Shown: positions 2,673-33,822, counted from the stretch's first letter. The stretch is DNA of 64,000 bases from an uncultured Chloroflexia bacterium (GCA_963725685.1 CAVRYZ010000005.1:1-64000), one strand, 5' to 3'. The notes: generated by a model from the sequence alone, not told the origin. Translations and numbers: made by a program.

Positions 2673-2872
2673 TGGACCTGGCGGGATTCGAACCCGCGGC
2701 CTCTTCAATGTGATAGATGATCAAGTAGGGGAAAAGGGGGAAAAAGCTGTCTATTACGTCTATTTTGTGCCAAAATCACCATACTGATATTGCATATCTG
2801 GTTCCAAATTGTTCCCGATTTGTACACGCAGTGTACCCGATATGCATCGGTATGAAACAAGGAAAAGACCTG
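2673..2872 (-). repeat. Copy A of ~200-nt dispersed repeat with tRNA/tmRNA-like 3' terminus (T-arm + acceptor fragment), minus orientation
   Basis: Reverse complement of 2673-2704 = GAGGCCGCGGGTTCGAATCCCGCCAGGTCCAC (T-stem GCGGG/CCCGC, loop TTCGAAT, 7-nt acceptor strand). Remaining ~170 nt is about 85-90 percent identical by eye to 5576-5787 and 30608-30812. No 5' tRNA half is present. Confidence 0.7.
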
Positions 2873-3065
2873 TCGCCCTGGCATGAAAGTAAGATGTAAG
2901 TAACATTGGAAGTAAAGATATTATGGGTTATATGATTATAAGACGATCCACCACTAGATTGACCTTTTGTGTCCTTATTGCGATTTATTGTCAATAGCCG
3001 GGCGATGTTTACCACACATAGTCGGGTTATGTTTACCAGTGATGATCGGGTTGGTGTTTACCACT

Positions 3066-3839
3066 TTAAGCAATCTTTTCCGTTTTTACTTTTAATAACG
3101 CCTCCTTTCTGCGGGAGAGTTGGCGGTAACTTTCACCCTGAATGACCAGGGTATGAGCATGATGGGTCAGACGATCCAGTGCGGCCGATGAAAGTAAGTC
3201 ATTGTTGAAGACCTCCGCCCACTCTTCGAAGGCGCGGTTGGAAGTGACCAGGATCGAGCCGCGTTCGTAACGCTCGCAGATAATTTCGTACAAGTCCTGG
3301 ATAGCAGCAGGCGGTAACACCTGCAAGCCGAAATCGTCCATGACTAACAGGTCGCATTTGAGCAGGGCGGTCAAATGGCGGTTGTAGGAACCGTTGGCTC
3401 GGGAAGCGTTGAGATCCGCCAGCAGTCGAAAGGTGGGTTTGGAGATGACCCGCAGGTCTCTTTTGAGGGCTTCGATGCCCAGGGCATTGGCTAAATGGGT
3501 TTTCCCCACTCCGGTAGGTCCGCAGAACAACACGTTTTCATGGCGCTGGATGAAAGCGCAGGTAGCCAGGTCGACGATGAAGGAGCGGTTCACCCCAGGA
3601 GTGGCCGCAAAGTCGAACTGCGACAGGGTCTTGGCAGGGTTGCAGCCCGAGGTGGACAGGCGATAAGCCAGGCGGTTCTGCTCGCGGCGTTCCAGCTCAT
3701 CGTCTAGCAACAGGGCAAAAAACTCCATGGGAGCCAGCTGCTCCTGGATGGCCTGCTCCACGCGCAAATCCAAGGTGTTGAGCATGCCGGAGAGGTTGAG
3801 CTGCCTGAGCTTGGGCAGTAAGGGATGGATAGAGATCAT
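3066..3839 (-). CDS. istB: IS21-family transposition helper ATPase IstB
   Basis: 257 aa, Walker A GPTGVGKTHLANALG, DnaC-like AAA+; start overlaps istA stop by 4 nt (ATGA). Confidence 0.95.
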   Translation of the reverse strand: MISIHPLLPKLRQLNLSGMLNTLDLRVEQAIQEQLAPMEFFALLLDDELERREQNRLAYRLSTSGCNPAKTLSQFDFAATPGVNRSFIVDLATCAFIQRHENVLFCGPTGVGKTHLANALGIEALKRDLRVISKPTFRLLADLNASRANGSYNRHLTALLKCDLLVMDDFGLQVLPPAAIQDLYEIICERYERGSILVTSNRAFEEWAEVFNNDLLSSAALDRLTHHAHTLVIQGESYRQLSRRKEALLKVKTEKIA

Positions 3840-5380
3840 GGCTGGCCTCCCGGGTGGTGTTCAAAGAATTCCCTGGGTTGGCGGGAGAAAGCGAATCCCT
3901 GTGGGTTGGGAGTAGCCACGAGCTGGTCCGGCAGCGGGTCACGATCAAGGGCAGCGTTGAGGATGTCCTTGATGCGCCGATAATGGGGATCACCGTAATA
4001 CAGGGCGCGCCTGCAAGCAGCTTCCAGGCGGCTCTGGCCTACGCTCTCCTCCAGCGCCAGGATGGCCTGCACCGAGCGCAGCCGGTCTAAGGGACGATCG
4101 GCTAACAAACGCTCGACCACCTGGTGGGTATGGGGGCCCATTCGCAGGGCAAGTTTGAGACAGAATTGCGGTGTTTTCAACAGGTACTGGGCCTTGGAAG
4201 GAGGATAATCCTCCATCTCCGTGCGCCATTGACCTTTCTGAGTTGCCCTGCGGTGCGTGCGCACCAGCTCGTGATGAGCATAGATTTCAACTATCCGTTC
4301 GTGCACATGTACTTCCACTTCAAATCCTACCAGGGTGTGGGACACTGAATAGAAGCTGCCGTCCACCACAATGTGGCAATCACTGTGCACCTTGGCCATG
4401 AGGATGGCGTGCAAATCAAAACTTTCGGCAGGCAGGGCTTGCAAGGCGGCTTGTTCGACCTCCCGAAACAACTTCAAGGGCGCCTGGTGCGTGGTGCCAT
4501 GCTCGCGCACCCCGGCCGTGTCCATTACCCAGGCCTTCAAACGCAAGTTGGCCCGCTCGAGATCCACAAATTCCTGCCCGGCGAAGAAGTTGCGCTTGAC
4601 GTAATTGACCCCATTTTCCACTTTCCCCTTGTGGCGTGGAGTAGCGGGACGGTTAGGACTGATCAGGAAGTGATAGTGCTGGGCCAGCTTGCGATAGGCT
4701 TCCCCAAGGATGGGATCCAGTACCAGGGCTTTGACTACCGCCGCCTTCAGGTTATCCAACACTACCCGCCGCGGCACGCCTCCGAAAAATACAAACGCGC
4801 GCTGGTGCAATCCCAGCCAGGTGTTGATCTTCTGGTCACAGACAATCTCGGCATATTGGTGGCGGCTGTATCCCAGGGTGGCCACAAATACATAACCTTT
4901 CCGCATCTTTCCGGCTTTCGGGTCATAGATGGGACCAATGCTTCCAAAATCCACCTGCAGCTCTTCCCCAGGTTCGGTATGTACCCGTACGTAGGCTTCT
5001 TTCTCTTCCGGCTGCAAGTGGTGCACAAAGCGCCGTATCGACGAATAACTGCCCTGATAGCTGTAATCATCACGCAGTCGCTGGAAGATGGCAGTCATTT
5101 CCAGCCCTTGTTGAAGATATTTTTCCACTACTTCCTGGTATCCTTCAACGGTGCTGGGCACTTTGGGCGGCTGAGGAACGAGGCCAAAGCTCTTGGCAAT
5201 CTCTTCCTTTTCAGGAAGTTCTTTTTGACTATCCAGGTAACCTTCCAAGAAGGCCTTCAGCCGATATTTGTGTACGGTCGGTCGGCTGATGCCTAGATCG
5301 CGAGAAATCCTGCGTTCACTTTCCTTCGCTCGCAATCGATAGATGATTTCGGTGTAGATGTTCATGTGGATCCGCTCCAT
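3836..5380 (-). CDS. istA: IS21-family transposase IstA
   Basis: N-terminal HTH (ISRDLGISRPTVHKYRL) and DDE integrase core. Start chosen at MERIHMNIY (ATG 5378-5380, GGGAGAGG RBS upstream); the 545-aa ORF in the track reads further upstream through the terminal repeats (repeated RCLPP). Confidence 0.9.
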   Translation of the reverse strand: MERIHMNIYTEIIYRLRAKESERRISRDLGISRPTVHKYRLKAFLEGYLDSQKELPEKEEIAKSFGLVPQPPKVPSTVEGYQEVVEKYLQQGLEMTAIFQRLRDDYSYQGSYSSIRRFVHHLQPEEKEAYVRVHTEPGEELQVDFGSIGPIYDPKAGKMRKGYVFVATLGYSRHQYAEIVCDQKINTWLGLHQRAFVFFGGVPRRVVLDNLKAAVVKALVLDPILGEAYRKLAQHYHFLISPNRPATPRHKGKVENGVNYVKRNFFAGQEFVDLERANLRLKAWVMDTAGVREHGTTHQAPLKLFREVEQAALQALPAESFDLHAILMAKVHSDCHIVVDGSFYSVSHTLVGFEVEVHVHERIVEIYAHHELVRTHRRATQKGQWRTEMEDYPPSKAQYLLKTPQFCLKLALRMGPHTHQVVERLLADRPLDRLRSVQAILALEESVGQSRLEAACRRALYYGDPHYRRIKDILNAALDRDPLPDQLVATPNPQGFAFSRQPREFFEHHPGGQP

Positions 5381-5575
5381 GTTCGCTGTTCCTCTCCCAT
5401 TGTGGTCTTGGGAGAGATTCTGCCACAGTGGTAAACACCGGGCGACGATGGGTGGTAAACACCGAGCGATCATGCCTGGTAAACACCGAGCGGCTACGCC
5501 TGGTAAACACCGGGCGACTATGACTGGTAAAGTCTACCCCGGTCAATGACAAATGTCATCGGTGACTTTGATCTC

Positions 5576-5787
5576 CCCCTTAGGGCAGGGTTTGGGGCTG
5601 CCTTTCCTTGCTTCATACTGCTGTACCCTTCGGGAACAATTTGGGAACAGATATGCTAGAACAGTATGGTGATTTTGGAACAAAATAGACGTAATAGACA
5701 GCTTTTGTCCCTTTTTCCCCTACTTGCTCATCTATCGCACTGTAGAGGCCGCGGGTTCGAATCCCGCCAGGCCCACCTCAACGACCC
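5576..5787 (+). repeat. Copy B of ~200-nt repeat with tRNA/tmRNA-like 3' terminus, plus orientation, ~20 bp from IS21 left end
   Basis: Ends GAGGCCGCGGGTTCGAATCCCGCCAGGCCCACC (5755-5787). Body CCTTTCCTTGCTTCATACTG...CGGGAACAATTTGGGAACAGATATGCTAGAACAGTATGGTGATTTTGGAACAAAATAGACGTAATAGACAGC is shared with copies A and C. Contains stem CATACTG/CAGTATG. Confidence 0.7.
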
Positions 5788-6069
5788 CATTCTCTATCTT
5801 GTAAGAATGGGATTGTTTAATGTCTCATTACACAAATTATTAAATCAAACCAAATCTAAATATTACAGCTTCCACGTCGTTTACACATTCATAGGATCGG
5901 TGTAATCTTATTTTATATGGTACAACAATAATTGGATCTTTCCATCAGTATCATCATGTCAATATGCACATATTTTATTTGATTAACTGTAATATTGCTC
6001 GATCTATACTCTTCGAACTTATTTACATTATTTGATATGAGTTCAGGATGAATACTTGCTAGACCTTAT

Positions 6070-7560
6070 TTAAAGAACCCAAGATCCGGTTTTTCCGGAT
6101 TCCAGGTGACGAGTGCCAATCCGCATTATACCAATTGCATCAATATCAAAGGTCAGCTCGACTTTCCCATCTTTACATTGTTCAGGCAATATATCAGCAT
6201 ATTTTATTTGGCCAAGGCAGTAATTGTTGTCAGCAAGTGTATCCTCGCCTTCAATGATATTGACATATCGGTCGCTCTGTTCTGTATTTCGTAGGGTAAT
6301 CATGACAGATTTGCGAGTGGGTATGGTAGTATATCGCGCTATTAAAATTTTCACTCCGCCTTGACCTGAGGTGATTCCAAGTGATAGCGGCACAACATCG
6401 AGAGGAAGAACGTCCTTTATTACTCCCTCATACACTCCGCCCAGGATGGCTGCTCCCTTGGCTATTGAATCATCGGGGCATTGGATTACTTTTACATTTT
6501 TATTCCTGAACTGATCCAAAAGTATTTTGATCATCGTCATCCTTGTAGCGCCACCGACCACAAGCAATGTCTTTATTTGTTCGATCGGCACACCCGAGTC
6601 AGCTATTACCCTATCTAGATGCTTTTGGCACGAGTCGACCATATCATGGGTAATTTCCTCAAATAACTGTCTGGATAATATTAATTCCAAATCTTGTACT
6701 CCCTTTTTTGTCCGCGTAATACTGGGGATACGTAAGGCAGTCTGTGTGAGGGTAGATAATTCTATCCGTGATTTTTCTGCTGCATCGCGAAGCCGTACAA
6801 GCGCCACCGGATCAAGCGCAAGGTCATAATTATGCATTTCCTGGAAACGGGAGAGAGCGACACGTATGATACGCTGGCTCCAGTCATCCCCACCCAGGAA
6901 TGGATTTCCTCCAACTGACCGAATTTGAGTTATCCCATCACCGTAGGTTTGGACTGATAACTCTAGCTTACCACCCCCTAAATCAAATAGCAGAATGTTT
7001 TCATTTAAATACTTTTTTATAAACGTATAAGCTAAAGAAGCTGCAAGAGACTCTTTTCTTACACAAAGCACATGAAGACCTGCCAAATTCCCAGCTTCAT
7101 GCAGTGCTTTAATATAATTGTAGCCATAACAACCAGGTCCGGTGATGACGGCTTGTGAAACTGTCTCCCCGAGGTAGGATTCAGCGATATACTTAATCTT
7201 CGATAAGATCAATGCGGCTACTTCAATTGGCGATAAGCTCTTTCCAATAGCTGGAATATGTAACAGGATATCATCCTTAGGCCAAGGTTTTATCAGCTGA
7301 GGGGTTATTAATAAGTTTTTCCGTATAACACTGAACGATTGCCCGATGAACCGCTTTACCGAAAAAACAGTATTTTCTGGATCATAGACGGCATTTTGTT
7401 TAGCCATTTGACCAATGATTGGTTCCCCATCATGCCTATAAGCTACCACCGAGGGAAGAATATCCAGACCATCAAGTGACCTAATAATGACGGGTTGGCT
7501 TTGCTGAACTACTGAAACCGCACATTTAGTGGTGCCAAAATCGATCCCAATTATCGACAC
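6070..7560 (-). CDS. Divergent Hsp70/DnaK-family ATPase lacking the C-terminal helical lid
   Basis: 496 aa; N-terminal IGIDFGTTKCAVSV (Hsp70 phosphate-1 motif), FDLGGGKLELSV (FDLGGGTFD-like), LVVGGATRM (VGGxTRiP-like), LDVVPLSLGI and TFDIDAIGIMRIG (substrate-binding beta domain, cf. DVtPLSLGiE and VtFdiDanGil). Ends after the beta-sandwich, so the lid is absent. Lower GC than core genes. Confidence 0.75.
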   Translation of the reverse strand: MSIIGIDFGTTKCAVSVVQQSQPVIIRSLDGLDILPSVVAYRHDGEPIIGQMAKQNAVYDPENTVFSVKRFIGQSFSVIRKNLLITPQLIKPWPKDDILLHIPAIGKSLSPIEVAALILSKIKYIAESYLGETVSQAVITGPGCYGYNYIKALHEAGNLAGLHVLCVRKESLAASLAYTFIKKYLNENILLFDLGGGKLELSVQTYGDGITQIRSVGGNPFLGGDDWSQRIIRVALSRFQEMHNYDLALDPVALVRLRDAAEKSRIELSTLTQTALRIPSITRTKKGVQDLELILSRQLFEEITHDMVDSCQKHLDRVIADSGVPIEQIKTLLVVGGATRMTMIKILLDQFRNKNVKVIQCPDDSIAKGAAILGGVYEGVIKDVLPLDVVPLSLGITSGQGGVKILIARYTTIPTRKSVMITLRNTEQSDRYVNIIEGEDTLADNNYCLGQIKYADILPEQCKDGKVELTFDIDAIGIMRIGTRHLESGKTGSWVL

Positions 7561-7837
7561 GTTACATTACCTTCCACTGAATAACAGATGCACTAAAAAT
7601 GATTGGCGATCGCATAAAACCCCAGCTTATTATCAACTTCTGAGATGCAAATGTCTATATCATGACCAAAGATTTCAGATAATCACAATCAAGAAAGGTG
7701 TGCCACGAACTTCAGACATATAGGCTAGGGTCGTTCAAGTGTAGGTAATTAATAATTTACTAAACGGAATAAACCGCTGCTCATGAATGTCAATTCGAAC
7801 GAATAACATACTGTAGCCTATATTAAATAGATATATT

Positions 7838-9112
7838 TTACTCATTGCATTTAGTAATTTTATCGCTGTAATTTATGACAATAACCGGACTGGCACTAAT
7901 TTGCTGAATATCCGCCCGCACCCACACACAATCGCCCTTTTTAAATTCCGAAAAATCCTTATCGTAAGACAAGAAATATAAATCCTGCTTTTCCGGTCCA
8001 AAGGCTAAATAAAAAACCCCTTGATCGCTATATTTACCAATAATATATCCCCATACACACCTTTCATTACCTCCTACATCTTTAAGTGTAATGATCGACC
8101 ATTGCGCACAGTCTGGGGGAACGTTTTGAGTAGGCGCCTCCGCCTTACTAGTAGGAAGAAGATTGGTTGGCAATGTAACAGGAGGAAGATTAGTGGGCGT
8201 AGTTTTCGAAGGTGGATTTGTCGGTAGAATTCGGGATGGCAATGCCGTCATAGTCGGTAGGTAGACACGAGTAGCTATAGGCACATAGTTCAATGAACCA
8301 TATCCTTGGATGATGGTTATTGGCGAACGTCCATAAAAGTACACGAAAACTGCTAAACTAACACTGAATGCAACACCTAACGAAATAATTTGCGGTTTCT
8401 TGTTTACAATCTTCGGACATTGGGTAAACGTATAATAATATTTGGCTGCGTTCCATGAAGGAATCAGAAATAATATTGGCAGATATGAAAGAAACATCAT
8501 CAACAAATAGCCTGATGTTTTTGTATTGGTTGGATTTTGACCTTTGGCTCCCAATATACCTATAATTGCCCTATCAATTATTGCGAAAGGCAGCGCCATC
8601 GCGGTAACAATTTGAAAATCCTTCCCAATAAATAAAAGCGATCCGCAGATAAAAAAAATAACGGTTCCCAATGCTATACAATATTCAATAAAAAGCATCC
8701 AAGCAAAAATTGCCCAGTAAGATGGTCCGTTTTGGGTTTTTTCTTCTGAAGGTTTCTCTATGGGAGTTATAGCCTCTGGAGGTTTTTCCCCGGAGGCTTT
8801 TTTGCTTGAAGATTTATCCGGTGGAATGCCCTCTGAGGATCCATCTGCTAGAGGAATAGAGCGTGTCGATTCGCCTGATGAAGATATACCATTAGGTGAT
8901 TTATCTTCAACTGGAGTATCACTTGTGGTTTCGCCCGCTGAAGATATAACCTGTGGGGTTTTTTCTTGTGGCGGAGTAACTCCTATCGGTTCATCTATTG
9001 AGACTTCTTCTCTTACAGATTTATCTTCCGCCTGTCCTGTGTTTCCACCGCAATTAGGGCAGATGAGAATCTCATCTTCCATCTCAGTTGCACAATATGG
9101 ACACTTTTTCAT
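7838..9112 (-). CDS. Membrane protein with N-terminal zinc ribbon, S/T/P-rich linkers and Cys-containing C-terminal domain
   Basis: CPYCATEM...CPNCGG ribbon; long low-complexity segment with SSxGE repeats; about 4 TM helices; P/T-rich extracytoplasmic linker (LPTNPPSKTTPTNLPPVTLPTN); ~90-aa C-terminal domain. Confidence 0.6.
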   Translation of the reverse strand: MKKCPYCATEMEDEILICPNCGGNTGQAEDKSVREEVSIDEPIGVTPPQEKTPQVISSAGETTSDTPVEDKSPNGISSSGESTRSIPLADGSSEGIPPDKSSSKKASGEKPPEAITPIEKPSEEKTQNGPSYWAIFAWMLFIEYCIALGTVIFFICGSLLFIGKDFQIVTAMALPFAIIDRAIIGILGAKGQNPTNTKTSGYLLMMFLSYLPILFLIPSWNAAKYYYTFTQCPKIVNKKPQIISLGVAFSVSLAVFVYFYGRSPITIIQGYGSLNYVPIATRVYLPTMTALPSRILPTNPPSKTTPTNLPPVTLPTNLLPTSKAEAPTQNVPPDCAQWSIITLKDVGGNERCVWGYIIGKYSDQGVFYLAFGPEKQDLYFLSYDKDFSEFKKGDCVWVRADIQQISASPVIVINYSDKITKCNE

Positions 9113-9248: not shown

Positions 9249-10130
9249 TCATTGAAGCGAATTCAACCAGATCTTTACCTGAGTCAGGATTTGTCCTGGA
9301 AGTAGATAAAATCCTGTATTGATCAATAAGTAAGTCCCGGCTACGAATAAAACTAGTACGCCTGCAACAATAATTACTCTATATGATGCCCGAAGAATAT
9401 TCCGAGATCTTTTTTGTACGGCCTCCTGGATACGCAGGTTGCTTATAAACGGATTTGGTGTCAGGGCGGAATCATAATCTTTGGTGACTTGGGCAACATT
9501 CCGCTGAAGCAGGTTCATATCATTATTAGTGATGTTACTTCCAAGACAAATCCTGGCTGGTATTTGACTAAGTGGCTTATGGAATGTTGAACGCGGCTGA
9601 TTTATTGTTGATAGAATATAGTTTTCAACATCATGATCATCGACTTGCCCTACCACCATCGCATCATATGGAGGCGTTGTAAATGGGGTGGTATTTTGTA
9701 ATAACTGTAAGCCGTTGATCCACAGGGTGGGGCCGATTTTCTCTACTTGTTCGTTCATTGGCTTATCAAGTTTGATCGCCAGGCATTCTACCCCTTTGTA
9801 TACGCTTATGTCATCATTACAATCAGGGCAGCAGCCATAATAGACTTTTTGGCCGTACGCCATTTTTTCATATCGTTTTCTAAAACGCAATAGATGATCT
9901 TTACATACAGCTGACCATATGTCACCGCCTGTTTGGGTGCGATTCCGAATACTATGAAAACGTTTCGTGATAATAAGTTTCCATCGCAGTAATAGGCTCT
10001 GATATATAGAAAACATTGCATTTCTAAATACTGAAAAGGGAACTGTAAACATACCAGATAGTTTTAATGCCAATCCACTAGGATATGCTAAAAAAACGCC
10101 ACAAAACAGGATCATTTGCCAGTCTTGCAT
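9249..10130 (-). CDS. Polytopic membrane protein, hypothetical (start uncertain)
   Basis: ORF 9249-10400 overlaps the next gene by ~320 nt in another frame; an internal start near MQDWQMILFCG is more likely. TM-rich, contains CCPDCND motif. Confidence 0.45.
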   Translation of the reverse strand: MQDWQMILFCGVFLAYPSGLALKLSGMFTVPFSVFRNAMFSIYQSLLLRWKLIITKRFHSIRNRTQTGGDIWSAVCKDHLLRFRKRYEKMAYGQKVYYGCCPDCNDDISVYKGVECLAIKLDKPMNEQVEKIGPTLWINGLQLLQNTTPFTTPPYDAMVVGQVDDHDVENYILSTINQPRSTFHKPLSQIPARICLGSNITNNDMNLLQRNVAQVTKDYDSALTPNPFISNLRIQEAVQKRSRNILRASYRVIIVAGVLVLFVAGTYLLINTGFYLLPGQILTQVKIWLNSLQ

Positions 10131-10911
10131 TCCGTATCTCCAGCCAGTAAATAACAGGTTGGCTAAACCTAAACCTCCTAGTAATATGAAGGTTATTTTG
10201 ACAAGCACGCGGTGGAATATTTTTCTTATTATTAATGCAAATATTCCGACTACACCTAACGCGATGAATACCCAATACCAGAAATGTGATAAAACTGGTA
10301 CGAAAAACGCCAGATAATATGACCAATAAGAAGCCGACTCGAATAAATTGAAAAAGAAGAAATGCAATCGGATATAGTGTAATAATAGCCAGTGTGCCAA
10401 CGAACGTGGTCATGGCTAACCACACGATTACCTCAACGTACCGAAGCGGGAATCTAATATATACAGGAGGAGTATCGCGGCCAGACCAGAATTCAATCCC
10501 CCTTAAACGCTCTATGAATTTATTCGAGCTGAATAACAGAACCTCTGCAAAAATGATCACTAACAACATAACCAAAAGGTAGGTGTTATCCGTATAGCGC
10601 TGCGTTGTCACCCAATTTGGGTCAACCCATATGCCAGGTCGTGATATTTTGAGGAATTGAGCTGCTTGATGAATAAAAGCTGTCAGGCTATAAGTTAATG
10701 CAATGATGTAAACGATGAGGAAGATGGCTGTAAAGAACAGGCCGATAATGAACTTCGAGAATATGGTGATCCAACCCGGGCTTAGGCGGTCAATCCGGGC
10801 TAAATACCGAATGATCCGCACCGTATCGAAATCGCGGATCTTGTCGACTGCTTCGATCATGTCGGGAATTGTTTGAGAGATCCGGATATCAGTGGGAATA
10901 TCAGGACTCAT
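10078..10911 (-). CDS. Polytopic membrane protein, hypothetical
   Basis: 277 aa, about 5 TM helices; stop/start overlap with the upstream gene (10908/10911), suggesting translational coupling. Confidence 0.55.
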   Translation of the reverse strand: MSPDIPTDIRISQTIPDMIEAVDKIRDFDTVRIIRYLARIDRLSPGWITIFSKFIIGLFFTAIFLIVYIIALTYSLTAFIHQAAQFLKISRPGIWVDPNWVTTQRYTDNTYLLVMLLVIIFAEVLLFSSNKFIERLRGIEFWSGRDTPPVYIRFPLRYVEVIVWLAMTTFVGTLAIITLYPIAFLLFQFIRVGFLLVILSGVFRTSFITFLVLGIHRVRCSRNICINNKKNIPPRACQNNLHITRRFRFSQPVIYWLEIRNARLANDPVLWRFFSIS

Positions 10912-12566
10912 CTATCATTCTCGTCTTTTTGTTTTCCGGATTGATTTTTTCCTGTAAATACCGATTTTAGTTTTTGATAGACCGATTCGGATTGCTCGAC
11001 ATGTGTATCAAAAAATCGGTGGAGCTGAGGTGCATATCCTTTATAGGATTTAATCCAACGTCTCAGTAATTGCTTATCATTAGGTGAAAAGTCGCTCCAT
11101 AAAACCGCTAATGAATTTACCGGGTAAAGTTTTTCATTGCGGTCTATCTGATCAAGTATGGACTTCAATTCGCCTGATTTTATGTGGCCTGTGGATAACT
11201 CGCACCAGATTTGTAGCCTGCTTGGAAGGAAGGCCTCGCTGGCTGTAACGATATTTGCATCCAGTAAACTAGAAACTTGCGTTTTATATGCATCTACATC
11301 CAGCAGCTCCAAAAACTTTTTCCATGCGGTTGTGTCCCCTTTGTTTAGCTGTAGTAAACTTTCTAAACCAGGGTAATGGCTTTCCTTGGCTAAATTTCCG
11401 AGGATCTTCCGGTCACTTGGAGTGAGAGGATATTTTACGTTCTTAAGAATCAATTGATAAAATAATTCTGCCAGGGACGTTTTGTTTACGCCAGTCACCA
11501 GCCATTGTAAGTAATTTTGTGGATTTGTCTTAATAGTACTCAATATATCGCTGACTAGCTGATTTGACAAACCGCTTATAGAAGTAATTATCTTTTCGCT
11601 GATAGCTTTGGAGTTTATCCGTGCGAAGTCCGCCACGAATGCCGGTTCAATATTTATTAACAGCGAATTACTTATTTGTTTACCCTGGATGACCATATCG
11701 AGCTGTAAGGCCGGATTACGATGGACGTTGAAATTTTCTAATTTGTTCGGGATTGATTGGGTTGCAATCCAATTCTCATAAGGTGTATCCTCGTTCGATA
11801 ATAATTCAGCGTCAACGTGATGGTTGGCTGTATCGATAACAATATACTTATTACCTTGATCTGCTTTCTCATCACCCCATACCCAGAAAGGCCAATCCCT
11901 GCTCCAATCACATCCATTAACAAAAGTATCAAAGGTTAATTTGGACCGTTTCTGCGGTGCGGTTAATAAGAAAATTATGGCCAATGTCTCCAAAATTTGC
12001 TGTGTCGAACCAATAAGCCGGATGCCGCGCTTATTTTTCTGCAGCTGCGTCGCTTGCCAGCCGATACGGGCTAATTTCATCAGCTGATCCTCAGGCCAGA
12101 ATCTTGCAACCTGTAAAGCTCGGTCTTGCCAGACGTCCACGCCTTCAATGATCTTGGAAGGCACATTACCTTTATCCTGGTTCACATTACCAAATGCATC
12201 CTCGACTCGAGAGATAAAATTCTTGTTTTGAATGAACCCTAAAGGGCAATACTCAGTGGAGGCGAATTCCATGGTGGTGATAATCAGGTTGTGGGTCAGG
12301 TAGCGGCCTCTGCGCCCGAATTCATCCGGTTCAGGCAGCGGTACAGTCCGAGAAATCACAACTTTTTCATCCGGCAGAGTATAGTATTGATATTTAATAA
12401 TTTCCTGTTCACCGGCAATATATTGAGACCGGTTCTCTAATATTGTCAAATCAGCTTGCGATATTCCTGATCGACTATAAGATATTGTCTGAAAACCACG
12501 ATGACCCATGGGAGACTGCTCCTTGGGTACATTGCTGAAGATGTGTTGAGAAGCGGTAATCTGCAT
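10908..12566 (-). CDS. Hypothetical protein, 552 aa, no recognisable motif
   Basis: Long uninterrupted ORF in co-oriented operon; shares a start/stop junction with neighbours (12566). Confidence 0.6.
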   Translation of the reverse strand: MQITASQHIFSNVPKEQSPMGHRGFQTISYSRSGISQADLTILENRSQYIAGEQEIIKYQYYTLPDEKVVISRTVPLPEPDEFGRRGRYLTHNLIITTMEFASTEYCPLGFIQNKNFISRVEDAFGNVNQDKGNVPSKIIEGVDVWQDRALQVARFWPEDQLMKLARIGWQATQLQKNKRGIRLIGSTQQILETLAIIFLLTAPQKRSKLTFDTFVNGCDWSRDWPFWVWGDEKADQGNKYIVIDTANHHVDAELLSNEDTPYENWIATQSIPNKLENFNVHRNPALQLDMVIQGKQISNSLLINIEPAFVADFARINSKAISEKIITSISGLSNQLVSDILSTIKTNPQNYLQWLVTGVNKTSLAELFYQLILKNVKYPLTPSDRKILGNLAKESHYPGLESLLQLNKGDTTAWKKFLELLDVDAYKTQVSSLLDANIVTASEAFLPSRLQIWCELSTGHIKSGELKSILDQIDRNEKLYPVNSLAVLWSDFSPNDKQLLRRWIKSYKGYAPQLHRFFDTHVEQSESVYQKLKSVFTGKNQSGKQKDENDR

Positions 12567-13696: not shown

Positions 13697-13844
13697 GAAT
13701 TTATTAGCGATTTAGGTGTTTACCTGGGTTCCACAATAAATGCAAAATTTTTTAGGAGGGTGCAACGGTTTGTGGCATTGTGGACACAATTTTTCACTCT
13801 CCATTACGCCTGGTGTACTGTCATTTTCAGTAACAGGCGGTGGT

Positions 13845-14048
13845 TTAGACAGGTGTTTCTTTTGTTTGAACTCGATTGATCTGATCACCACCGCTGACGA
13901 AATTCATATGAGACGCTGAACTATCCATTTGGATCCTGTTGATTTGATCTCCCTTACTTACAGGTCCATAATAGGCATTTTCTATCACTACCGCTGGCGC
14001 TGGTTGGTTAATTGTGTTGCCTCCAGGCCTTGATTGCTCAGTATTCAC
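13845..14048 (-). CDS. Small protein with tandem GDQINR[IV]Q motif
   Basis: 67 aa; motif [SG]GDQINR[IV]Q occurs twice; start overlaps upstream gene stop (14045/14048). Confidence 0.35.
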   Translation of the reverse strand: MNTEQSRPGGNTINQPAPAVVIENAYYGPVSKGDQINRIQMDSSASHMNFVSGGDQINRVQTKETPV

Positions 14049-14581
14049 CGTTGTTTTGGCGAAATCGGAGGTTTTTGTATACCCGGCCAGGGAATCATAT
14101 CTGGGTCGGAGAGACGAACGAACGCGGAACCAAGTGATGTAACTGTTGCCTTATAGGCATTGTCGATTGCTTCACGCAGCACATGACCTTCGATTAGTGA
14201 AGCACATAAATTGACTAAAAAATCGATAGCCCCATTCGTTCCCGGGTCAGATTGAAATGCAATTCCAGCTTGAGCCTGAGGAAACCAGCTTTCCACCTGG
14301 GATTGATCTAACTGTCCCGGAAGAATTAGAATTAGGCTTATCCTTTTTATGCAGCGTTGAATTTGTAATGGATCGATGCAACCGAAATCTTCAGCTGGGA
14401 TCACTAGGATATGATAGTACCCAGCTTGTTGGACATGTCCGCCTAATTCATGGATAGGTACGAGGTTCAAACTAAGTCGACACGTAGTAATTAACTTAGC
14501 CAGCGCCCGGTGTAAACGGGCTCCTTCGTCTCCAGACCAACAAGCTAAAATCCGTAATGGTTGAGAAGGTTGAGTGGACAT
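14045..14581 (-). CDS. Hypothetical protein, possible degenerate receiver-like (CheY-fold) domain
   Basis: 178 aa; LRILACWSGDEG...HILVIPAEDFG...ISLILILPGQ alternating beta-alpha pattern reminiscent of REC domains but without the phospho-acceptor Asp. Speculative. Confidence 0.45.
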   Translation of the reverse strand: MSTQPSQPLRILACWSGDEGARLHRALAKLITTCRLSLNLVPIHELGGHVQQAGYYHILVIPAEDFGCIDPLQIQRCIKRISLILILPGQLDQSQVESWFPQAQAGIAFQSDPGTNGAIDFLVNLCASLIEGHVLREAIDNAYKATVTSLGSAFVRLSDPDMIPWPGIQKPPISPKQR

Positions 14582-26919: not shown

Positions 26920-28115
26920 TCAGCCTTGGACCTTCTTCATCCATTCATCGTACAGGCGCAGCATGCGTGAATTTGTGATCGGATGAATTTGCTCAAAGGC
27001 AATCCTGAAATCAGGCGCGGTGAGCGCTTCAACTTTGATCTCGTAGTTGCGCACAGCTTCCTGCCCTTTATCTACTACATCCATCAATCCGGGATTCAGC
27101 CGCTGGATCATTTGTGTGATGGCCGTCTGGCAGAGCTGCTCGATCTCCCTTCCAGAATAGCCTGCCGTGCGGCGTGCTAGCTCAGGCAATGGCACAAGAC
27201 TCTTGTGGCCATGACGGGTGAGGTTGATCTCAAGGATCGCCATACGTGCAGGTTCATCCGGCAACGGAATATAGATACGGCGTTGGAAACGGCTGAGTAT
27301 GGCTGAGTCCAATAGCCAGGGTACGTTAGTGGCACCGATCGTCAAGACAAAGCTTTGATTTTCCTTATTGGCTAAACCATCCAGCTCAGCCAGGAATGTG
27401 CTGATGATGCGCCTTTCGGCGCCACTCTCTCCTGAACCACGCGGGGAGTAAGCGCTTCAAACTCATCCAGAAAGATCACCGATGGTTCAAGGCGCCGGGC
27501 AACCGTGTATAATGCGCTGATCAATTTGGATGATTCACCGAAGTACTTGGATAGAAGACTGCTAATTTTGACATTAAAGAAAGTGGCTTCCAGGCTGCCA
27601 GCCGTCGCCGCTGCCAGGAGTGTTTTACCTGTGCCAGGGGGACCATATAGCAGGAAGTTACGCCATCCACTAATCTCAACCCCCTTGGGCTTACGCGCGA
27701 GTGCAAGGCCATATGCCGATTTGATGGCTTGTTTGGTATCATCAAGGCCACCTATATCTTCCCACTTGATCCCGGTCCGCGTGATCAGGTCTAAGACCAT
27801 CGTCTCGTAATCATCCTCGCGGGTAAGTTCTGCGGTCTGGCTCGCGGCATGGTTAACGTCTTTCGGTCTGGTTTTGATGGAGCTCGAATGGGATAGACGA
27901 TCAGCTATATCATCCAACGCTGTAGCACGTTCAAGCCGTTGCTTGCGGACATTTTGATCGAGCGTTATTTGAGCATATTGGCGCATCAGTGTCGCAGACT
28001 GTCGGTAAGCTGTGGCTGCCACCTGCAATGCACCCTGCCTCTCGGCATCTTCGGCGCGCTTCCGTGCCCGTTTGTATTGTGCATAAATTGGACCGCTTAG
28101 ATCAACGGTCTTCAT
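26920..28115 (-). pseudogene. Vps4/katanin-like (meiotic-clade) AAA+ ATPase with N-terminal MIT-like domain, interrupted by one frameshift
   Basis: N-terminal three-helix MIT-like segment (ERQGALQVAATAYRQSATLMRQYAQ...RKQRLERATALDDIADRL). IKWEDIGGLDDTKQAIK. Walker A LLYGPPGTGKT. Walker B VIFLDEFEAL. Frame switch near 27395 (PKGASSAH -> RIISTFLAELDGL). Second ORF ATNVPWLLDSAILSRFQRRIYIPLPDEPAR is near-identical in pattern to Vps4 [26 protein letters not shown], plus a Vps4-C-like tail. Confidence 0.75.
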
Positions 28116-28128
28116 GTTTGCCCCCTGA

Positions 28129-28956: not shown

Positions 28957-29620
28957 CTAAGCAGGGTTACCAGGATAGGGTAATATTTCGGATGCATATT
29001 GTAGGGAGAGACTATTATAGGCAAGCATCTCTTTCTCGATTACTTTAATAGCTTCTTCCAGCTCTTCAGCCGGGAGGGCAGGGGTAAATAATTCGGCATA
29101 CAGGCGCAGCCGATCATCTCGAGGATTAAAGAGTAACTCTCCGCGTTCGATGTCATAGAGATAAAGTAGGAATTGGCGGTGAAAAAATGGTTTTTCACTT
29201 TCATCACCCAGTATAACCCGATGAGCTGCGAGATCCCAGCCAGATGTGGCCGCCAAGACAACCATATAAAAAGCTGCTCCTCGCTGAGTTGACTCATTCA
29301 GACGCTCAATCCGATTTAAAAGTAGGTCTTCAGTGAGCGCTTGGGTATCAAAACCATCGCGTAACATGGTTGCCAATCGACTGATTACCTCAAGACGTAT
29401 CTCCAGCGGCAACCCCTTTTGATTTTTCTGCTGGTGGAATACGGTAAGTCAGGGCAGCATTAAGTGGGACTTCAGCCAGCATTTCCGTATCCAGGATAAC
29501 TTTTCCCCGAAGGCGCATCACTTCTGCACGCTCATCATGTTGCTCCAACAGAGTGTTCCAATCTTGAATGGTAAGGGTCTCACCAGTCTGCGGATGGATC
29601 AAGACTCCTAATCGACTCAA
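28957..29620 (-). CDS. Hypothetical protein, possibly one gene split into two ORFs (29620-29390 and 29412-28957)
   Basis: Two overlapping ORFs in adjacent frames; the second begins with TTG. A junction frameshift is plausible but unproven. Confidence 0.35.
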
Positions 29621-30107
29621 GGCGCATCTGAGTACGGTTGAGAAAATTGAGCTCGCGCAAACGAGCTGTGCTGCTCTTGAGTAATAGTGGCAGTTCGCCC
29701 TGCTGATGGTTATGCAAGGCAGTCTCCCATTTCTGCTCTCGGGTGGGTGAGTGACGGGCGCAGTACTCGACGCCCTCTCCTTGACATTGGCTGCAGATCA
29801 GTTCGTCACATCCTTCGCTTTTACAGACATCACCGATCTGAGCATCCGACTCGAGCAAACGATAGCACGAGCCACACTTGATCTGGGTACTATCTATAAC
29901 CCTGGGTTGATTATCCTCGATAAATGTACGCTCCCCGCTAAGCATGGCCTGCAGTGCTTGTCGAGGAATGAAATATAAGCCGCCAACCTTGTTGGCCGGA
30001 AGCTCACCACTCCAAATCCTTCGATAAACCCAGCGCCGTGACACACCCAAAAGTCGGGCAGCTTCATCTATCTTGAGATACTGAGAAGGATCATCTTTTG
30101 GGAGCAT
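29580..30107 (-). CDS. Excisionase-family (MerR-like) HTH DNA-binding protein with Cys-rich C-terminal region
   Basis: YLKIDEAARLLGVSRRWVYRRIWSGELPANKVGGLYFIPRQAL matches the excisionase/HTH_17 pattern, followed by CGSCYRLL...CKSEGCDELICSQCQGEGVEYCARH. Confidence 0.6.
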   Translation of the reverse strand: MLPKDDPSQYLKIDEAARLLGVSRRWVYRRIWSGELPANKVGGLYFIPRQALQAMLSGERTFIEDNQPRVIDSTQIKCGSCYRLLESDAQIGDVCKSEGCDELICSQCQGEGVEYCARHSPTREQKWETALHNHQQGELPLLLKSSTARLRELNFLNRTQMRLESIRSLDPSADW

Positions 30108-30607
30108 TGTAATTTCCTTTGATGAGAAAATCCATCATGATATTAATCATACCCAGTAATATTGTACATTATTGTACACGATATGTCAAGTAGGAATGGA
30201 CAAAAGTGGACAATCCTTCCGTCTTCGAATTTATCTATAATGATAAAGCTAAATTATTTATCGTTGATAGGAGATAATATCTAGATAGGGATCTTCATTA
30301 GAAATATCAAATATCCAATAATTCAATTGTAAACATCCTTATTTGTCAGTGGTTCAATTATTCATCAATTACAAACACAGATTAATCGTATACATTGTGA
30401 AGTAGATCAACTAGAAACTAAATTGTTGACTGGGCTTGAATAACCACATCCAATGTACTTGCTTGTTTTCTGTCCAGTGGCTTGGGCAATAATGGCAGGA
30501 CATTGGATGGGAGAAGTATTTTTTGGTAGCGTCCTATTAAACCATTAGTTGAGCGTTCGAGTCGCTCCAATCAAAACTAATTTCTGAAAACGGTCTTTAC
30601 TTTTTTT

Positions 30608-30812
30608 CCCCCTCAGGACAGGTTTACGGATCGTCTTTCCTTGCTTCATACTGCAGAGCACAATTCGGGAACAATTTGGGAACAGATATGCTATAACAGT
30701 ATGGTTATTTTGGAACATAATAGACGTAATAGACGGCATTTTCACCCTTTTCCCCTATCGTGCTCATCTATCGCACTGAAGAGATCGCGGGTTCGAATTC
30801 CGCCAGGTCCAC
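30608..30812 (+). repeat. Copy C of ~200-nt repeat with tRNA/tmRNA-like 3' terminus
   Basis: CCCCCTCAGGACAGG...TCTTTCCTTGCTTCATACTG...CGGGAACAATTTGGGAACAGATATGCTATAACAGTATGG...GATCGCGGGTTCGAATTCCGCCAGGTCCAC. Confidence 0.7.
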
Positions 30813-30840
30813 AAGTTTACAGAGGTGATTAAATCATATC

Positions 30841-30910
30841 CCTCTGCGGGACAGGGTTGCGAGTTGCCCTTCCTTGCTTCATTCTGAGGTGCAGTTCGGG
30901 TGCAATTATT
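30841..30910 (+). repeat. Partial copy D (5' module only) of the repeat, tandem to copy C, subfamily variant
   Basis: CCTCTGCGGGACAGGGTTGCGAGTTGCCCTTCCTTGCTTCATTCTGAGGTGCAGTTCGGGTGCAATT. Confidence 0.55.
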
Positions 30911-31127
30911 CTGTATCTTATTCTCGTTCACTATGCTGGTAGTATGTGCCGCGCCTACTCCTACGCCTTCAATTACTCCCATTCCACCTACGCCCACACC
31001 AACCCAATCAGCTCTTATTGTCAGACCCGGTTTGATCACCGGAAAAGTGGATGTCGGCGGACGGAGTCTTTACATCCTTTACATGGGCGAAGGGAGCCCT
31101 CCGGAGTGGATTTTCTGATGAAATGAC

Positions 31128-31172
31128 CTCACAGGTTAGGAGATCTGCGTCGTCTCCCAGACCTGTGAGGTC
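31128..31172. terminator. Nested GC-rich hairpin just downstream of the LRR gene; possible terminator, no T-tract
   Basis: CCTCACAGGT tag GGAGA tctgcgtcg TCTCC cag ACCTGTGAGG: 10-bp outer stem enclosing a 5-bp inner stem. Confidence 0.3.
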
Positions 31173-31191
31173 TGGAGTGATTAGCTCGAAC

Positions 31192-33570
31192 TTAGTTACG
31201 AATGACCGTCAGGAAGACCCGTAGGGGTGTGCCAAACACACCGAACTCTGTCAAGTGACAGAATGGCAAGGCAAGCAGGTTGCCAACCAGGTCTCGAGTG
31301 TACTCACCTCCTGGGCAGCTTGAGACGGCATCCGTCCAGGAGCTGGTCGTGCTTTCCCAGTAGTACAAACCCAGGGATGCTTCGGGGAAACCGGTGGTGT
31401 CCGTATCGGTATAGGTGAGGGTTACCGTCAGGGGTAGGTTAAATTCCGTCACCGGGTTGCCAGCAGAATCATCCGCAGTCAATTCGAAGGAGGTATTGGC
31501 AGAATCCAGCCAAGTCGAGCCGTGGTGAGATGCTGGATGCGGGATGAAAGTGAAATTTGTGTCGCCATTTAATGCTCCGGCAGGGATTAGGAAATCCGTC
31601 CGCCCATCCAGCGAGGTGAGCTCACCACCTGCAATGCCGATTACCTGCTCAAAGCCCTGGTACAGCTGCCAGTCTGGGTCCATATGGCTCAAGAAAACCT
31701 GCAGCGGGTCAGCAGGGTCCGGGTATCCCGCTGGAACATTTAACCTGTTATAACCCAAATTCAAACCATCAAAACAAGTAGGACTCGGATTATCCAGGTA
31801 AACAAGGTTTATAAATGTGGCCGGTACATCGCCATATAACTTATTATCTTGTAATTGGAGCACACATATTTTCGTCAGGTTGCCCAATTCAGAGGGTATG
31901 TTGCCGCTCAATTGATTACCATTTAGATATAAATGGATCATGTCGGGGGGATTGCCCAGCTCGGGCGGGATATTGCCAGTAAATTGATTGTTGGCCAGGT
32001 CCAGGTAATTCAGGCTGGAGATAATACCCAAACAACTTGGGATCATACCACTCAGCTGGTTCGCGCTCAGATGCAATTGCCAAACATCGGAGAGATTGCA
32101 CAACTCGGCAGGCAGACTACCCATTAAGAGATTAGAATTTAATGTGACAGTGGCTACATGCCCGTTGCTGACCATCACTCCATACCAATTGCCCGGTGTG
32201 CTGGTTTCCAGCCAATGAGTTCGGATTGCCCATTGGGGTCCATTGGTGCTATTGTATAACGATACCAGGGACTCGCATTCTGTCTGCGGGATCTCGGTGA
32301 CGGTCGAACAATCGACAAAAAGTTGGATCTGGCTTAGCTGCCAGTCAGGTTCTTTTTGACTAAGGAAAACTTGAAACGGATCAGTGGGGTCTGGGTAGCC
32401 AAGAGGGATGTTGAGCAGGTTATAATCCAGGTCCAGCCCATCATAATAGAAACCAGGATCCAACAGGTTAACCAGGTTGATCAATGTAGGTGGAACATCA
32501 CCTTCCAGCAGATTGTCTTGCAGCCATAACATATCCAATTTGGTTAGGTTGCCCAATTCATCGGGTATGCTGCCACTAAGCTCGTTTGAGTTAAGCATCA
32601 ACCTTCTCAGGCTGGTGAGGGTTCCCAGAACAGGAGGGATGTTGCCGGTTAATTGATTGCCCTCCATCGAAAGCCAGGTTAGATTGGTGAGACTGCCCAG
32701 CCACTCCGGAATACTGCCACCCAATGGATTCCCGGATAACCAAAGTTCATCCAGGTTGGTAAGGTTGGCCAGCTCTCCTGGGATGCCACCGCTCAATTGA
32801 TTGCCGGATAGATACAGTTTTTTTAAGTTGATCAGATTACCTAGCTCATGGGGGATATCACCACTAAGCTGGTTTACATTGAGATATAAATAATGTAGAT
32901 TGGCTAGATTGCCAAGCGCGTGGGGGATACTGCCACTTAATTGGTTGTTTGTTAAATTCAAACTCCCTAGGTTACCAAGGTTGCTCAATTCTGATGGAAT
33001 AATTCCACTCAAATGATTAAAACCTAGGTCTAGCCCTACCAGGTAAGTAAGATTACCCAGTTCTGGTGGTATAGTGCCATTCAATTGATTATTATCCAAG
33101 AGTAATTGCCGCAGGTTGGTCAGGTTTCTTATCTCGTGAGGTATGTTACCGCTTAGTTGGTTTTGGTAAAGAGACAGCGTCGTCAAGTTGGTAAGCTTGC
33201 CTAGTTCTGGGGGTAGATTGCCAGTCAGACGATTTGCACGTAAATCCAAATTATTCAGACTGGTAAGATTGCCCAGCTCGTGTGGAATACGTCCATTCAA
33301 CTGATTAGAGGTTAAATTTATCTCCCTTACATGTCCGTTGAATAATGCTACTCCATACCAATCGCTGGGTGTATTCGTTGTCAACCAATTGGTACTGTCC
33401 GTCCATCCATCACCATTGGTGCTGTTGTAGAGCACCACCAGGGCTTCACACTCGATCTGGGGTATCTCAGTGACATCGATACACAAGAACTCAGGGCTTG
33501 CAGCTGTAACTGGCAGCGAAGTGGTTATAGCAACCACGATGGCTAGTGCTAAATAAACTATACATTTCAT
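31192..33570 (-). CDS. Secreted leucine-rich-repeat protein with plant-type LRRs, two LRR blocks each preceded by a Cys-containing cap
   Basis: Signal peptide MKCIVYLALAIVVAITTSLPVTAASP (start chosen at 33570). Cap CIDVTEIPQIECEALVVLYNSTNGDGWTDSTNWLTTNTPSDWYGV is repeated as CSTVTEIPQTECESLVSLYNSTNGPQWAIRTHWLETSTPGNWYGV. About 20 repeats of LxxLxxLxLxxNqLSGxIPxELGNLTN. Confidence 0.85.
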   Translation of the reverse strand: MKCIVYLALAIVVAITTSLPVTAASPEFLCIDVTEIPQIECEALVVLYNSTNGDGWTDSTNWLTTNTPSDWYGVALFNGHVREINLTSNQLNGRIPHELGNLTSLNNLDLRANRLTGNLPPELGKLTNLTTLSLYQNQLSGNIPHEIRNLTNLRQLLLDNNQLNGTIPPELGNLTYLVGLDLGFNHLSGIIPSELSNLGNLGSLNLTNNQLSGSIPHALGNLANLHYLYLNVNQLSGDIPHELGNLINLKKLYLSGNQLSGGIPGELANLTNLDELWLSGNPLGGSIPEWLGSLTNLTWLSMEGNQLTGNIPPVLGTLTSLRRLMLNSNELSGSIPDELGNLTKLDMLWLQDNLLEGDVPPTLINLVNLLDPGFYYDGLDLDYNLLNIPLGYPDPTDPFQVFLSQKEPDWQLSQIQLFVDCSTVTEIPQTECESLVSLYNSTNGPQWAIRTHWLETSTPGNWYGVMVSNGHVATVTLNSNLLMGSLPAELCNLSDVWQLHLSANQLSGMIPSCLGIISSLNYLDLANNQFTGNIPPELGNPPDMIHLYLNGNQLSGNIPSELGNLTKICVLQLQDNKLYGDVPATFINLVYLDNPSPTCFDGLNLGYNRLNVPAGYPDPADPLQVFLSHMDPDWQLYQGFEQVIGIAGGELTSLDGRTDFLIPAGALNGDTNFTFIPHPASHHGSTWLDSANTSFELTADDSAGNPVTEFNLPLTVTLTYTDTDTTGFPEASLGLYYWESTTSSWTDAVSSCPGGEYTRDLVGNLLALPFCHLTEFGVFGTPLRVFLTVIRN

Positions 33571-33735
33571 AATGTCCCTACTTCGTGGTTGAAACTGAAA
33601 TAATGATACATCAACCCACATCCCAACATTATTTTTATATAACTATGGTTGAATTATTTTATATACACTATACATCGATATAACTTATATGTCAAGTTTT
33701 GCCTTCTCGAAAAGGGAGTTGTATTAACGTGATCC

Positions 33736-33822
33736 GCGCAGGTCGCCTTTCCTTGCTTCATACTGGTGCAGTTCGGTGCAGTTTGGGTGCAAATATCCTG
33801 ATACAGTATGGTAATCGTGGAC
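33736..33822 (+). repeat. Partial copy E (5' module) of the repeat, same subfamily as D
   Basis: CGCAGGTCGCCTTTCCTTGCTTCATACTGGTGCAGTTCGGTGCAGTTTGGGTGCAAATATCCTGATACAGTATGGTAATCGTGGAC. Confidence 0.55.

Follow-up and report, generated by a model that had tools for sequence, protein, structure and literature searches.

Repeats ending in a tRNA-Ala(CGC) fragment in an uncultured Chloroflexia genome are probably attachment-site junctions of accreted integrative elements

Displaced fragments of tRNA genes are said to have been described, by Reiter in 1989 and Williams in 2002, at the ends of genomic islands and prophages inserted by tyrosine integrases. The phage-side attachment site (attP) of lambda-type elements bears arm-type integrase sites on its P and P' arms, plus sites for Xis and IHF. 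In streptococci, work on ICESt3-type elements reportedly uncovered accretion, with cis-mobilizable elements (CIMEs) flanked by attachment (att) sites and devoid of recombination genes of their own, and in Dehalococcoides, which belongs to the same phylum as the organism studied here, ssrA-specific islands are said to stand in tandem, with direct repeats derived from the 3' end of this tRNA-like gene at their borders. Here we analyze a dispersed repeat family of about 200 nt with a tRNA-like 3' end, found in a 64-kb stretch of DNA from an uncultured Chloroflexia bacterium (GCA_963725685.1, CAVRYZ010000005.1:1-64000; the whole stretch is called the window below). We consider it quite likely that its copies are attR-type junctions, each joining an integrase arm to a displaced tRNA-Ala(CGC) fragment, of integrative elements accreted in genomes of the class Anaerolineae. 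A suitable comparison is offered by the Islander collection (PMC4383910), in which a regenerated tRNA gene and its displaced fragment mark the ends of islands, attP sites are centred on the anticodon in 2083 of 3919 islands, and tandem arrays occur. As in islands of this anticodon-loop ('A') class, the 3' part of the tRNA is here duplicated from the anticodon loop, the fragment stands between element DNA and a flank that is native or belongs to the next element, several junctions have direct orientation as in tandem arrays, and some cassettes contain integrase and excisionase-like genes. Unlike those islands, the window has no intact regenerated tRNA gene, one junction (copy A below) is inverted, most cassettes are without an integrase, and the element-side arm is unusually conserved (85-90% over ~165 nt) next to unrelated cargo. 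The mechanism behind the copies is most likely this well-known, ordinary one and not a new RNA family, so that the attractive idea of a new tRNA-like RNA or short interspersed element (SINE) gives way to a standard process.

The five copies reported in an initial annotation of the window were all found at the positions it had given, copy A on the minus strand and B to E on the plus strand, and a sixth copy, F, which is new and represents a third subfamily, lies at 37309-37562. A repeat search of the window aligned A and B as inverted arms of 171 nt (87% complementary), and B and C as 90% identical over 94 nt and 84% identical over 74 nt. The pattern TTCCTTGYTTCATWCYGN{35,65}CAGTATGG, which spans the conserved 5' block and the CAGTATGG block, has four matches in the window against 0.00 expected by chance, and T-arm-like motifs number seven against 1.1 expected. 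Subfamily 1 comprises copy A (minus strand; tRNA-derived part at 2673-2714, arm at 2715-2893 with TCGGGAACAATTTGGAACCA repeats at 2799-2818, nhmmer score 207), copy B (arm at 5571-5733 with repeats at 5630-5649 spaced 11 nt, nhmmer score 220; tRNA-derived part at 5734-5775) and copy C (arm at 30604-30769 with repeats at 30665-30684, nhmmer score 220; tRNA-derived part at 30770-30811). The two partial copies that the initial annotation had set apart as a second subfamily do belong together, but only D (30841-30910, with GGTGCAG repeats) is a true 5' fragment, covering positions 8-81 of the nhmmer model, whereas E, read from the sequence, is a complete member with GGTGCA and TGGAC repeats (33733-33938). 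Copy F, recovered by a profile search, carries ATGGTGTAATT twice at 37385-37406 and ends in AGGCGTTCGATCCGCCTCGGGGTCACCA. All six copies fall within 2.6-37.6 kb, and the genes outside this span are ordinary metabolic ones.

The T-stem/T-loop and 7-nt acceptor strand at the 3' end are as initially described. In order to identify their source, we scanned a metagenome collection for tRNA-sized genes having a T arm, an acceptor 3' strand and a complementary 5' strand, and recovered at least 120 genes; among these matches listed, ARAGORN assigned at least 97 to tRNA-Ala(CGC) and at least 13 to tRNA-Ala(GGC). A common variant of these genes ends in ...GCGCTTCA|ATCGCACTGAAGAGGCCGCGGGTTCGAATCCCGCCAGGTCCA and the subfamily 1 copies in ...GCTCATCT|ATCGCACTGAAGAGGCCGCGGGTTCGAATCCCGCCAGGTCCA. 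Written out by structural segment, the former reads GGGCCTGTAGCGCAGTTGGGAGCGCGCTTCA ATCGCAC TGAAG AGGCC GCGGG TTCGAAT CCCGC CAGGTCC A and the latter ...GCTCATCT ATCGCAC TGAAG AGGCC GCGGG TTCGAAT CCCGC CAGGTCC A. Set side by side, the tRNA and copy sequences are identical over 42 nt that begin with the first base of the anticodon loop and end with the discriminator base. The match is perfect (42/42) in four copies from related genomes, averages 37.5/42 over 29 copies and ranges from 36 to 42, a few degraded or interrupted copies apart; in the window it is 40/42 for A and B and 39/42 for C, whose GAGATCGCGGG variant is also present in an intact tRNA of locus L135 (we designate loci from other genomes by L numbers). 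In the five bases ahead of the anticodon loop, some resemblance to the 5' anticodon-stem strand persists. Beyond this, nothing like the 5' half of tRNA-Ala was found, with up to three mismatches allowed, either in the window or across related loci totalling ~190 kb, in agreement with the initial annotation, and ARAGORN detects no tRNA or tmRNA in the window; nor was tRNA-Ala(CGC) found within 2-8 kb around other copies.

The ends of the other subfamilies differ. Copy F terminates in a different tRNA-like part, AGGCG-TTCGATC-CGCCT CGGGGTC A CCA, and copy E in a hairpin, CCTCCCTTCCGGGGAGG (33913-33929), followed by a run of T and no T arm; the motif CAATTTTTGATGCATTT in the flank after E also follows the tRNA parts in L002, a contig from a viral collection. 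The tRNA-like ends tied to the putative targets of subfamilies 2 and 3 are ...GTAGGTTCGAGTCCTATTCCGCCCA and ...AGGCGTTCGATCCGCCTCGGGGTCA. That different T-arm and acceptor sequences end the different subfamilies is as expected if related integrases use different tRNA targets, and it suggests composite elements carrying older junctions. The initial annotation had likened the 3' end to those of tRNAs and tmRNA: the first holds, as the 3' part of tRNA-Ala(CGC) from the anticodon loop, but the second does not, the Rfam tmRNA model aligning with the T arm and acceptor strand only. A permissive Rfam scan scored 18.8 bits over these parts, against a gathering score of 47, and a likeness of the 5' GGACAGGGCUACGGAUCGCC to tmRNA 5' ends found no support in the tmRNA model. 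It had also proposed that a full-length tRNA gene with an identical 3' end, together with an unconserved upstream part, would make the copies simple att remnants. Full-length tRNA genes with an identical 3' 42 nt do exist (at least 97 for tRNA-Ala(CGC)), but the upstream body is conserved among copies because, as we read it, it is element DNA and not chance flank.

Comparison of copies with intact tRNA loci indicates how the two are related. Two metagenome contigs carrying an intact tRNA-Ala(CGC), L135 and L148, align with the copies in L011, L024 and L005 over a stretch that starts at the anticodon loop and extends 150 nt or more downstream; upstream of the loop the same loci diverge, the genes having the tRNA 5' half and the copies the body. 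This downstream flank is shared by L004 as well, and the next gene, encoding a 430-aa protein, is common to L011 and L135 (79% identity). The flank of a third intact contig, L129, is that found after the copy in L028, with a related form in L010. Many contigs, for example L144, carry tRNA-Ala(CGC), a short spacer and then tRNA-Ala(GGC), and in L022 and L027 a subfamily 1 copy occupies the tRNA-Ala(CGC) position ahead of the same spacer and tRNA-Ala(GGC). Such a pattern is characteristic of foreign DNA having joined a tRNA gene at its anticodon loop, the displaced 3' fragment being left beside the original flank. Further, L010 and L011 are 98% identical over 3.7 kb and then differ; the point of divergence lies ahead of the copy by ~200 nt in L011 and by 3.2 kb in L010, and the differing DNA is on the body side of the copy, as the island model predicts. 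The subfamily 1 body is absent from all 120 tRNA-Ala loci among the metagenome matches listed, and searches for contigs encoding the window proteins returned the contig of the same strain only, or none.

The body, ~165 nt in length, contains two to four direct-repeat units, with a spacing of 11 nt in 39 of 40 cases. Subfamily 1 has GGGAACA, GGGTACA or GGGCACA as its unit, subfamily 2 has GGTGCA and subfamily 3 GGTGTAA, and one copy in L002 has GGGACCA; the bodies also contain paired T(A/G)GAC motifs. A body of about 170 nt common to the full copies had been noted initially, and this stands, but the GGCAG...CTGCC hairpin assigned to it occurs only in copy B, the other copies having GGACAG... 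at that place. Its 5' third is common to subfamilies that end in different tRNA-like parts, and it remains 85-90% identical across genomes with differing flanks and among elements with unrelated cargo, which suggests that it may still be in use.

L002 has related repeats on both arms. In this contig, a segment of 10.5 kb is bounded by a 105-nt direct repeat (3420-3524 and 13989-14093), whose two copies are 82% identical and combine the 3' part of a tRNA with its flank. GGGTGCA occurs threefold at 3568-3608, in the left arm, and at 13826-13866, in the subfamily 2 body by the right repeat. Beside the left arm, Pfam identifies a tyrosine integrase (3753-4727), a small excisionase-like protein of the HTH_17/AlpA type (4823-5035) and a DnaB_N/AAA_25 helicase (5281-6600). 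This would be a lambda-type layout, with putative arm-type sites on both attP arms and the integrase and excisionase genes near one of them. On the opposite arm of subfamily 1, L010, L008 and L030 have two inverted TTCGGGACA sites downstream of the tRNA part; these sites are close in sequence to the TTCGGGAACA units of the body. The apparent correspondence with lambda attP lies in two to four direct repeats one helical turn (11 nt) apart and 100-160 nt from the core, in related repeats that the other arm bears in direct (L002) or inverted orientation (L010, L008 and L030) and, in L002, in an HTH_17/AlpA-type gene adjoining that of the integrase. A difference is that Pfam recognizes no arm-binding domain in the 300-aa recombinase of the window, which has SAM_1 and a catalytic domain. 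An integrase is present within the bounded segment in the cassette between E and F (34375-35277) and in L002, and as a remnant in L004, while the B-C segment and most other loci have none.

These results can be accommodated by a series of events. An integrative element (a genomic island or prophage-like element), moved by a tyrosine integrase, would insert into a tRNA gene. The body would be the element-borne arm of its attachment site, in which the 11-nt-spaced repeats (GGGWACA, GGTGCA and GGTGTAA in subfamilies 1, 2 and 3) are probably arm-type sites for the N-terminal domain of the integrase, and an excisionase or other accessory protein may recognize the T(A/G)GAC pairs. Crossover would take place at the anticodon loop, the anticodon stem supplying inverted core sites, and the last 42 nt would stem from the 3' part of tRNA-Ala(CGC), the target gene, displaced by the insertion. 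Related elements would then integrate repeatedly (accretion) and decay, resulting in an array of junctions between cargo modules; copies would stand at module boundaries because that is what accretion followed by decay leaves behind. Read along the plus strand, the window contains, in this order, core genes (ABC transporter), inverted A, an IS21-family insertion sequence (IS), B, cargo, a module named 'u1', C, D (starting 29 nt after C), a leucine-rich repeat (LRR) protein gene, E, a cassette and F, whose tRNA-like end, including CCA, faces the core genes from the isocitrate/isopropylmalate dehydrogenase family gene onward. Copies B to F all have the same, direct orientation, as accretion of elements would lead one to expect. 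The 35-kb region seems to be a worn accretion hot spot in which the target tRNA-Ala(CGC) has been lost; the codon served by this tRNA is probably readable by another tRNA-Ala. The initial suggestion of degenerate attachment sites for the neighbouring tyrosine recombinase is therefore retained as regards attachment sites, but these would belong to several related elements and not to one neighbouring recombinase.

The window also shares with the ICESt3 and CIME elements its arrays of att sites that separate modules, some of them lacking an integrase, and the very short or cargo-less units between sites; the differences are the host (Chloroflexota, class Anaerolineae), the lack of visible conjugation genes and a mobility that is here a prediction. 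The Dehalococcoides ssrA islands are similar in being tandem and in having as direct repeats the 3' end of a tRNA-like gene, and differ from the present elements in the target, which is here tRNA-Ala(CGC) over 42 nt from the anticodon loop, and in the long conserved arm found here. Junctions of this kind would mark the borders of mobile modules in the poorly studied genomes of Anaerolineae and may explain some breaks of metagenome contigs near such repeats, and the candidate integrase arm sites (GGGWACA, GGTGCA, GGTGTAA) could be matched to integrase subfamilies.

A search with the pattern found 29 stretches in a collection of species-representative genomes, all of them in metagenome-assembled genomes (MAGs) of Anaerolineae/Chloroflexota, plus the viral-collection contig L002; it was not found in E. 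coli genomes or in the phage and plasmid collections. A profile built from 25 copies detects further, more divergent ones. Copies cluster, with six within 35 kb in the window and pairs or triplets within a few kb elsewhere. No recurrent protein-coding neighbour of the copies was found, and for most of them no integrase homologue lies beside. A second scan of viral contigs gave one match, in a coding region of L032, which we attribute to chance.

Several observations weigh against the interpretation of the copies as attR-type junctions. No intact tRNA gene lies within the 64-kb window, so the regenerated gene expected in the same orientation at the other end of an island is missing there; for subfamily 1, no complete island, from tRNA gene to fragment, was seen on a single contig; and the 25-kb segment between B and C has no recognizable integrase. 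Copy E ends in its hairpin with no recognizable tRNA part, and the targets of subfamilies 2 and 3, which by eye look Val-like (L002, L013) and Lys-like (F), could not be confirmed. The inverted orientation of A, with the tRNA ends of A and F both pointing outward to core genes, is not predicted by simple accretion and needs a rearrangement. Elsewhere, the genes just upstream of copies are often metabolic (GH31, FGGY kinase, PHO4, aminotransferase). Finally, the conservation of the body exceeds that of a neutral scar and would imply ongoing function or recent spread.

This last point, together with the scarcity of integrases near the copies, would be explained if the copies themselves were the mobile units, and not the scars of larger islands as in the reading that we favour. 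They would then be mini elements without cargo, of ~0.5 kb, composed of arm Y, arm X and the 42-nt tRNA segment and mobilized in trans by integrases encoded elsewhere, in analogy to miniature inverted-repeat transposable elements (MITEs), and in Anaerolineae genomes they would act as starting points for recombination hot spots and for arrays resembling cassettes. A unit of this description is found in L010, where 467 nt (7096-7562) between two 42-nt tRNA-Ala parts hold a terminator, two inverted TGTCCCGAA sites and an arm of the type of window copy A, and nothing else; we regard it as a putative cargo-less attachment-site unit. The sequence upstream of A, up to the IS21 insertion point, is the same as the arm of this unit and matches copy 2 of L010, and some copies are merely 17-480 nt apart (L002, L010, L026 and C/D in the window). 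Deletion of cargo from ordinary islands would, however, give the same picture, a pair of occupied and empty sites was not found for such a unit, and the unit of L030 follows a tRNA-Ser gene and not a tRNA-Ala part. We thus consider the mini-element explanation unlikely, though worth keeping in mind.

A second possibility, already raised in the initial annotation as a structured RNA family, is that the copies are genes for small RNAs of ~200 nt, with a 3' end that mimics tRNA-Ala for processing by tRNA enzymes or for stability, and beside which integrative elements insert. The strong conservation of primary sequence would be in keeping with this, as would the terminator-like hairpin and T run within ~10 nt after many copies, the ability of the 5' GGAC/GGGC to pair with the 3' GTCC/GCCC, and a compensatory change of one T-stem pair from CG to AU in five copies. 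The terminators and the T-stem variants, on the other hand, are the same as in real tRNA-Ala loci, and the T-stem pair is the sole clear compensation among 25 copies, for which RNAalifold gives a consensus energy of only -14.7 kcal/mol over ~215 nt. Folding energies equal those of shuffled sequences (z = 0.00 for copy B and +0.39 for the L009 copy, which has a 42/42 tRNA match). The CATACTG/CAGTATG stem described initially exists as an inverted repeat, but its pairing is unsupported: the first five pairs are invariant in the 25 copies and, because they never vary, uninformative, and the sixth is broken in 12 of 25 copies without compensation. No Rfam family reaches its gathering threshold in the window, no conserved promoter was seen, the upstream sequences falling into several unrelated groups, and the number of 11-nt units varies between copies. 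Taken together, these tests do not bear out a structured RNA family, and we judge small RNA genes very unlikely. A coding function is no better placed, since open reading frames (ORFs) cluster there only because the DNA repeats, and 11-nt indels between copies rule out a reading frame across the body.

Still less probable is a tRNA-derived transposable element of the MITE or SINE kind, spread by transposition or retroposition with a tRNA-like end, as had also been suggested at first. The family is multi-copy, with up to 13 pattern matches in one co-assembled, fragmented MAG, and A and B form an inverted pair of 171 nt around an IS. The figure of 13 may, however, be inflated by strain variants, MAGs with long contigs having only one to three, clustered matches, and the IS21 between A and B has ends of its own, unrelated to the repeat. 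Inspection of the flanks of single copies showed neither target-site duplications nor terminal inverted repeats, and the sequence 3' of the copies runs collinear with that natively found beside intact tRNA-Ala genes, a flank that a transposed copy would not carry; the proposal is not supported. A functional tRNA-Ala gene that is split, intron-containing or tmRNA-like, its 3' half bearing a long leader and being joined to a separate 5' half or the body being an intron, could explain the break at the anticodon loop, where such genes are interrupted, and the weak local match to the tmRNA model, but is scarcely conceivable given the missing 5' half, the lack of any ARAGORN call at the copies, the substitutions of window copies in the anticodon loop, anticodon stem and acceptor strand, and the intact tRNA-Ala(CGC) genes on related contigs. 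Two further candidates were discarded: Tn7/CAST-like ends, prompted by repeated TGTTCC motifs, because no paired ends with terminal TGT were seen and the flanks fit tRNA-gene integration, and attC-like integron cassettes, because the sites are 200 nt long with part of a tRNA gene and no integron-type integrase with attI was seen.

Returning to the favoured reading of the copies as attR-type junctions, the modules between them differ in content. The IS21-family element between A and B (2989-5551, minus strand; istA at 3836-5473 and istB at 3066-3839, by the Pfam domains rve/Mu-transpos_C_2 and IstB_IS21) has the termini TGTCAATAGCCGGG and TGTCATTGACCGGG, which are separate from the repeat family, and subterminal 24-nt repeats TGGTAAACACCGRGCG..., four to five at the right end (5429-5548) and related ones at the left (3000-3060). 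No target-site duplication was found, the flanks being GATTTAT and AATGTCA, and the DNA on either side was therefore probably not contiguous before. An inversion or deletion linked to IS21 would fit both the inverted orientation of A and the missing intact tRNA gene, the evidence from the IS being circumstantial. The same IS21 terminus (TGTCATTGACCGGGG...) interrupts a subfamily 1 copy in L015 (1269-1514) right after ATCGCACTGA, inside the tRNA-derived part.

The cargo between B and C (5776-30391, ~25 kb, identified by composition and Pfam) has a G+C content of 0.40-0.45 over 6-20 kb. At its right end lies an HTH_17 gene (29580-30107, minus strand) with the excisionase-family fold, whose promoter region contains TGGACAAAAGTGGACAA (30197-30213), resembling the TGGAC pairs of the bodies; this is a hint that HTH_17-type proteins may bind at TGGAC-like pairs. 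Between this segment and C, module 'u1' (30392-30603, plus strand) is a conserved stretch of ~200 nt with a T-arm-like hairpin, GAGCG-TTCGAGT-CGCTC (30551-30567), followed by CAATCA. It is also found upstream of copies in L010, L015, L029 and L008, and its hairpin may be what is left of some other tRNA fragment. Between E and F lies a cassette of 3.4 kb in which the tyrosine recombinase gene (34375-35277, minus strand; Pfam Phage_integrase, 6e-37, plus Phage_int_SAM_1) adjoins genes, also assigned with Pfam, for a ribbon-helix-helix (RHH) protein (35506-35928) and ParA (35925-36722).

Among the cargo proteins are an Hsp70-like protein (6070-7560), zinc-ribbon proteins (7838-9112 and 21102-23300), a GAP1-N2 domain protein (10908-12566), a weakly SPFH-like protein (23336-24964) and an AAA ATPase split over two ORFs (26920-27345 and 27372-28115); many cargo ORFs have no Pfam match. 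PADLOC reported nothing in the ten large cargo proteins scanned, and the region 6070-29000 may be an undescribed conflict system. The LRR gene bounded by D and E (31192-33621, 809 aa) contains internal DNA repeats of 114 nt (31795-31908 and 32464-32577, 70% identical).

Some minor features were observed at related loci. A 16-kb metagenome contig (ENA ERZ25039554 contig_28116; L001/L153), 100% identical to the left flank of the window over the matched ORF, stops at about window position 2465, ~190 nt short of copy A, in what looks like an assembly break near the repeat. In L030, a subfamily 1 copy (6753-7290) lies 180 nt downstream of an intact tRNA-Ser(CGA) and has a GC-rich hairpin of ~40 nt inserted between T loop and acceptor strand (~7236-7275). 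In L002, two tyrosine recombinase genes flank a stretch (9416-9836) densely packed with ~10 copies of an A-rich repeat of 10 nt, TAAAAGGCAC or a variant of it; this stretch may be an iteron-like or regulatory region. In the window, (G)AACGTT(T) is repeated four times just to the right of F (37567-37605), and AATACAAGGTCG twice to the left of A (2491-2514), ahead of a promoter-like site of the TTGACA type; these short tandem repeats outside A and F resemble arm or operator sites, belonging either to further elements or to the flanking gene.

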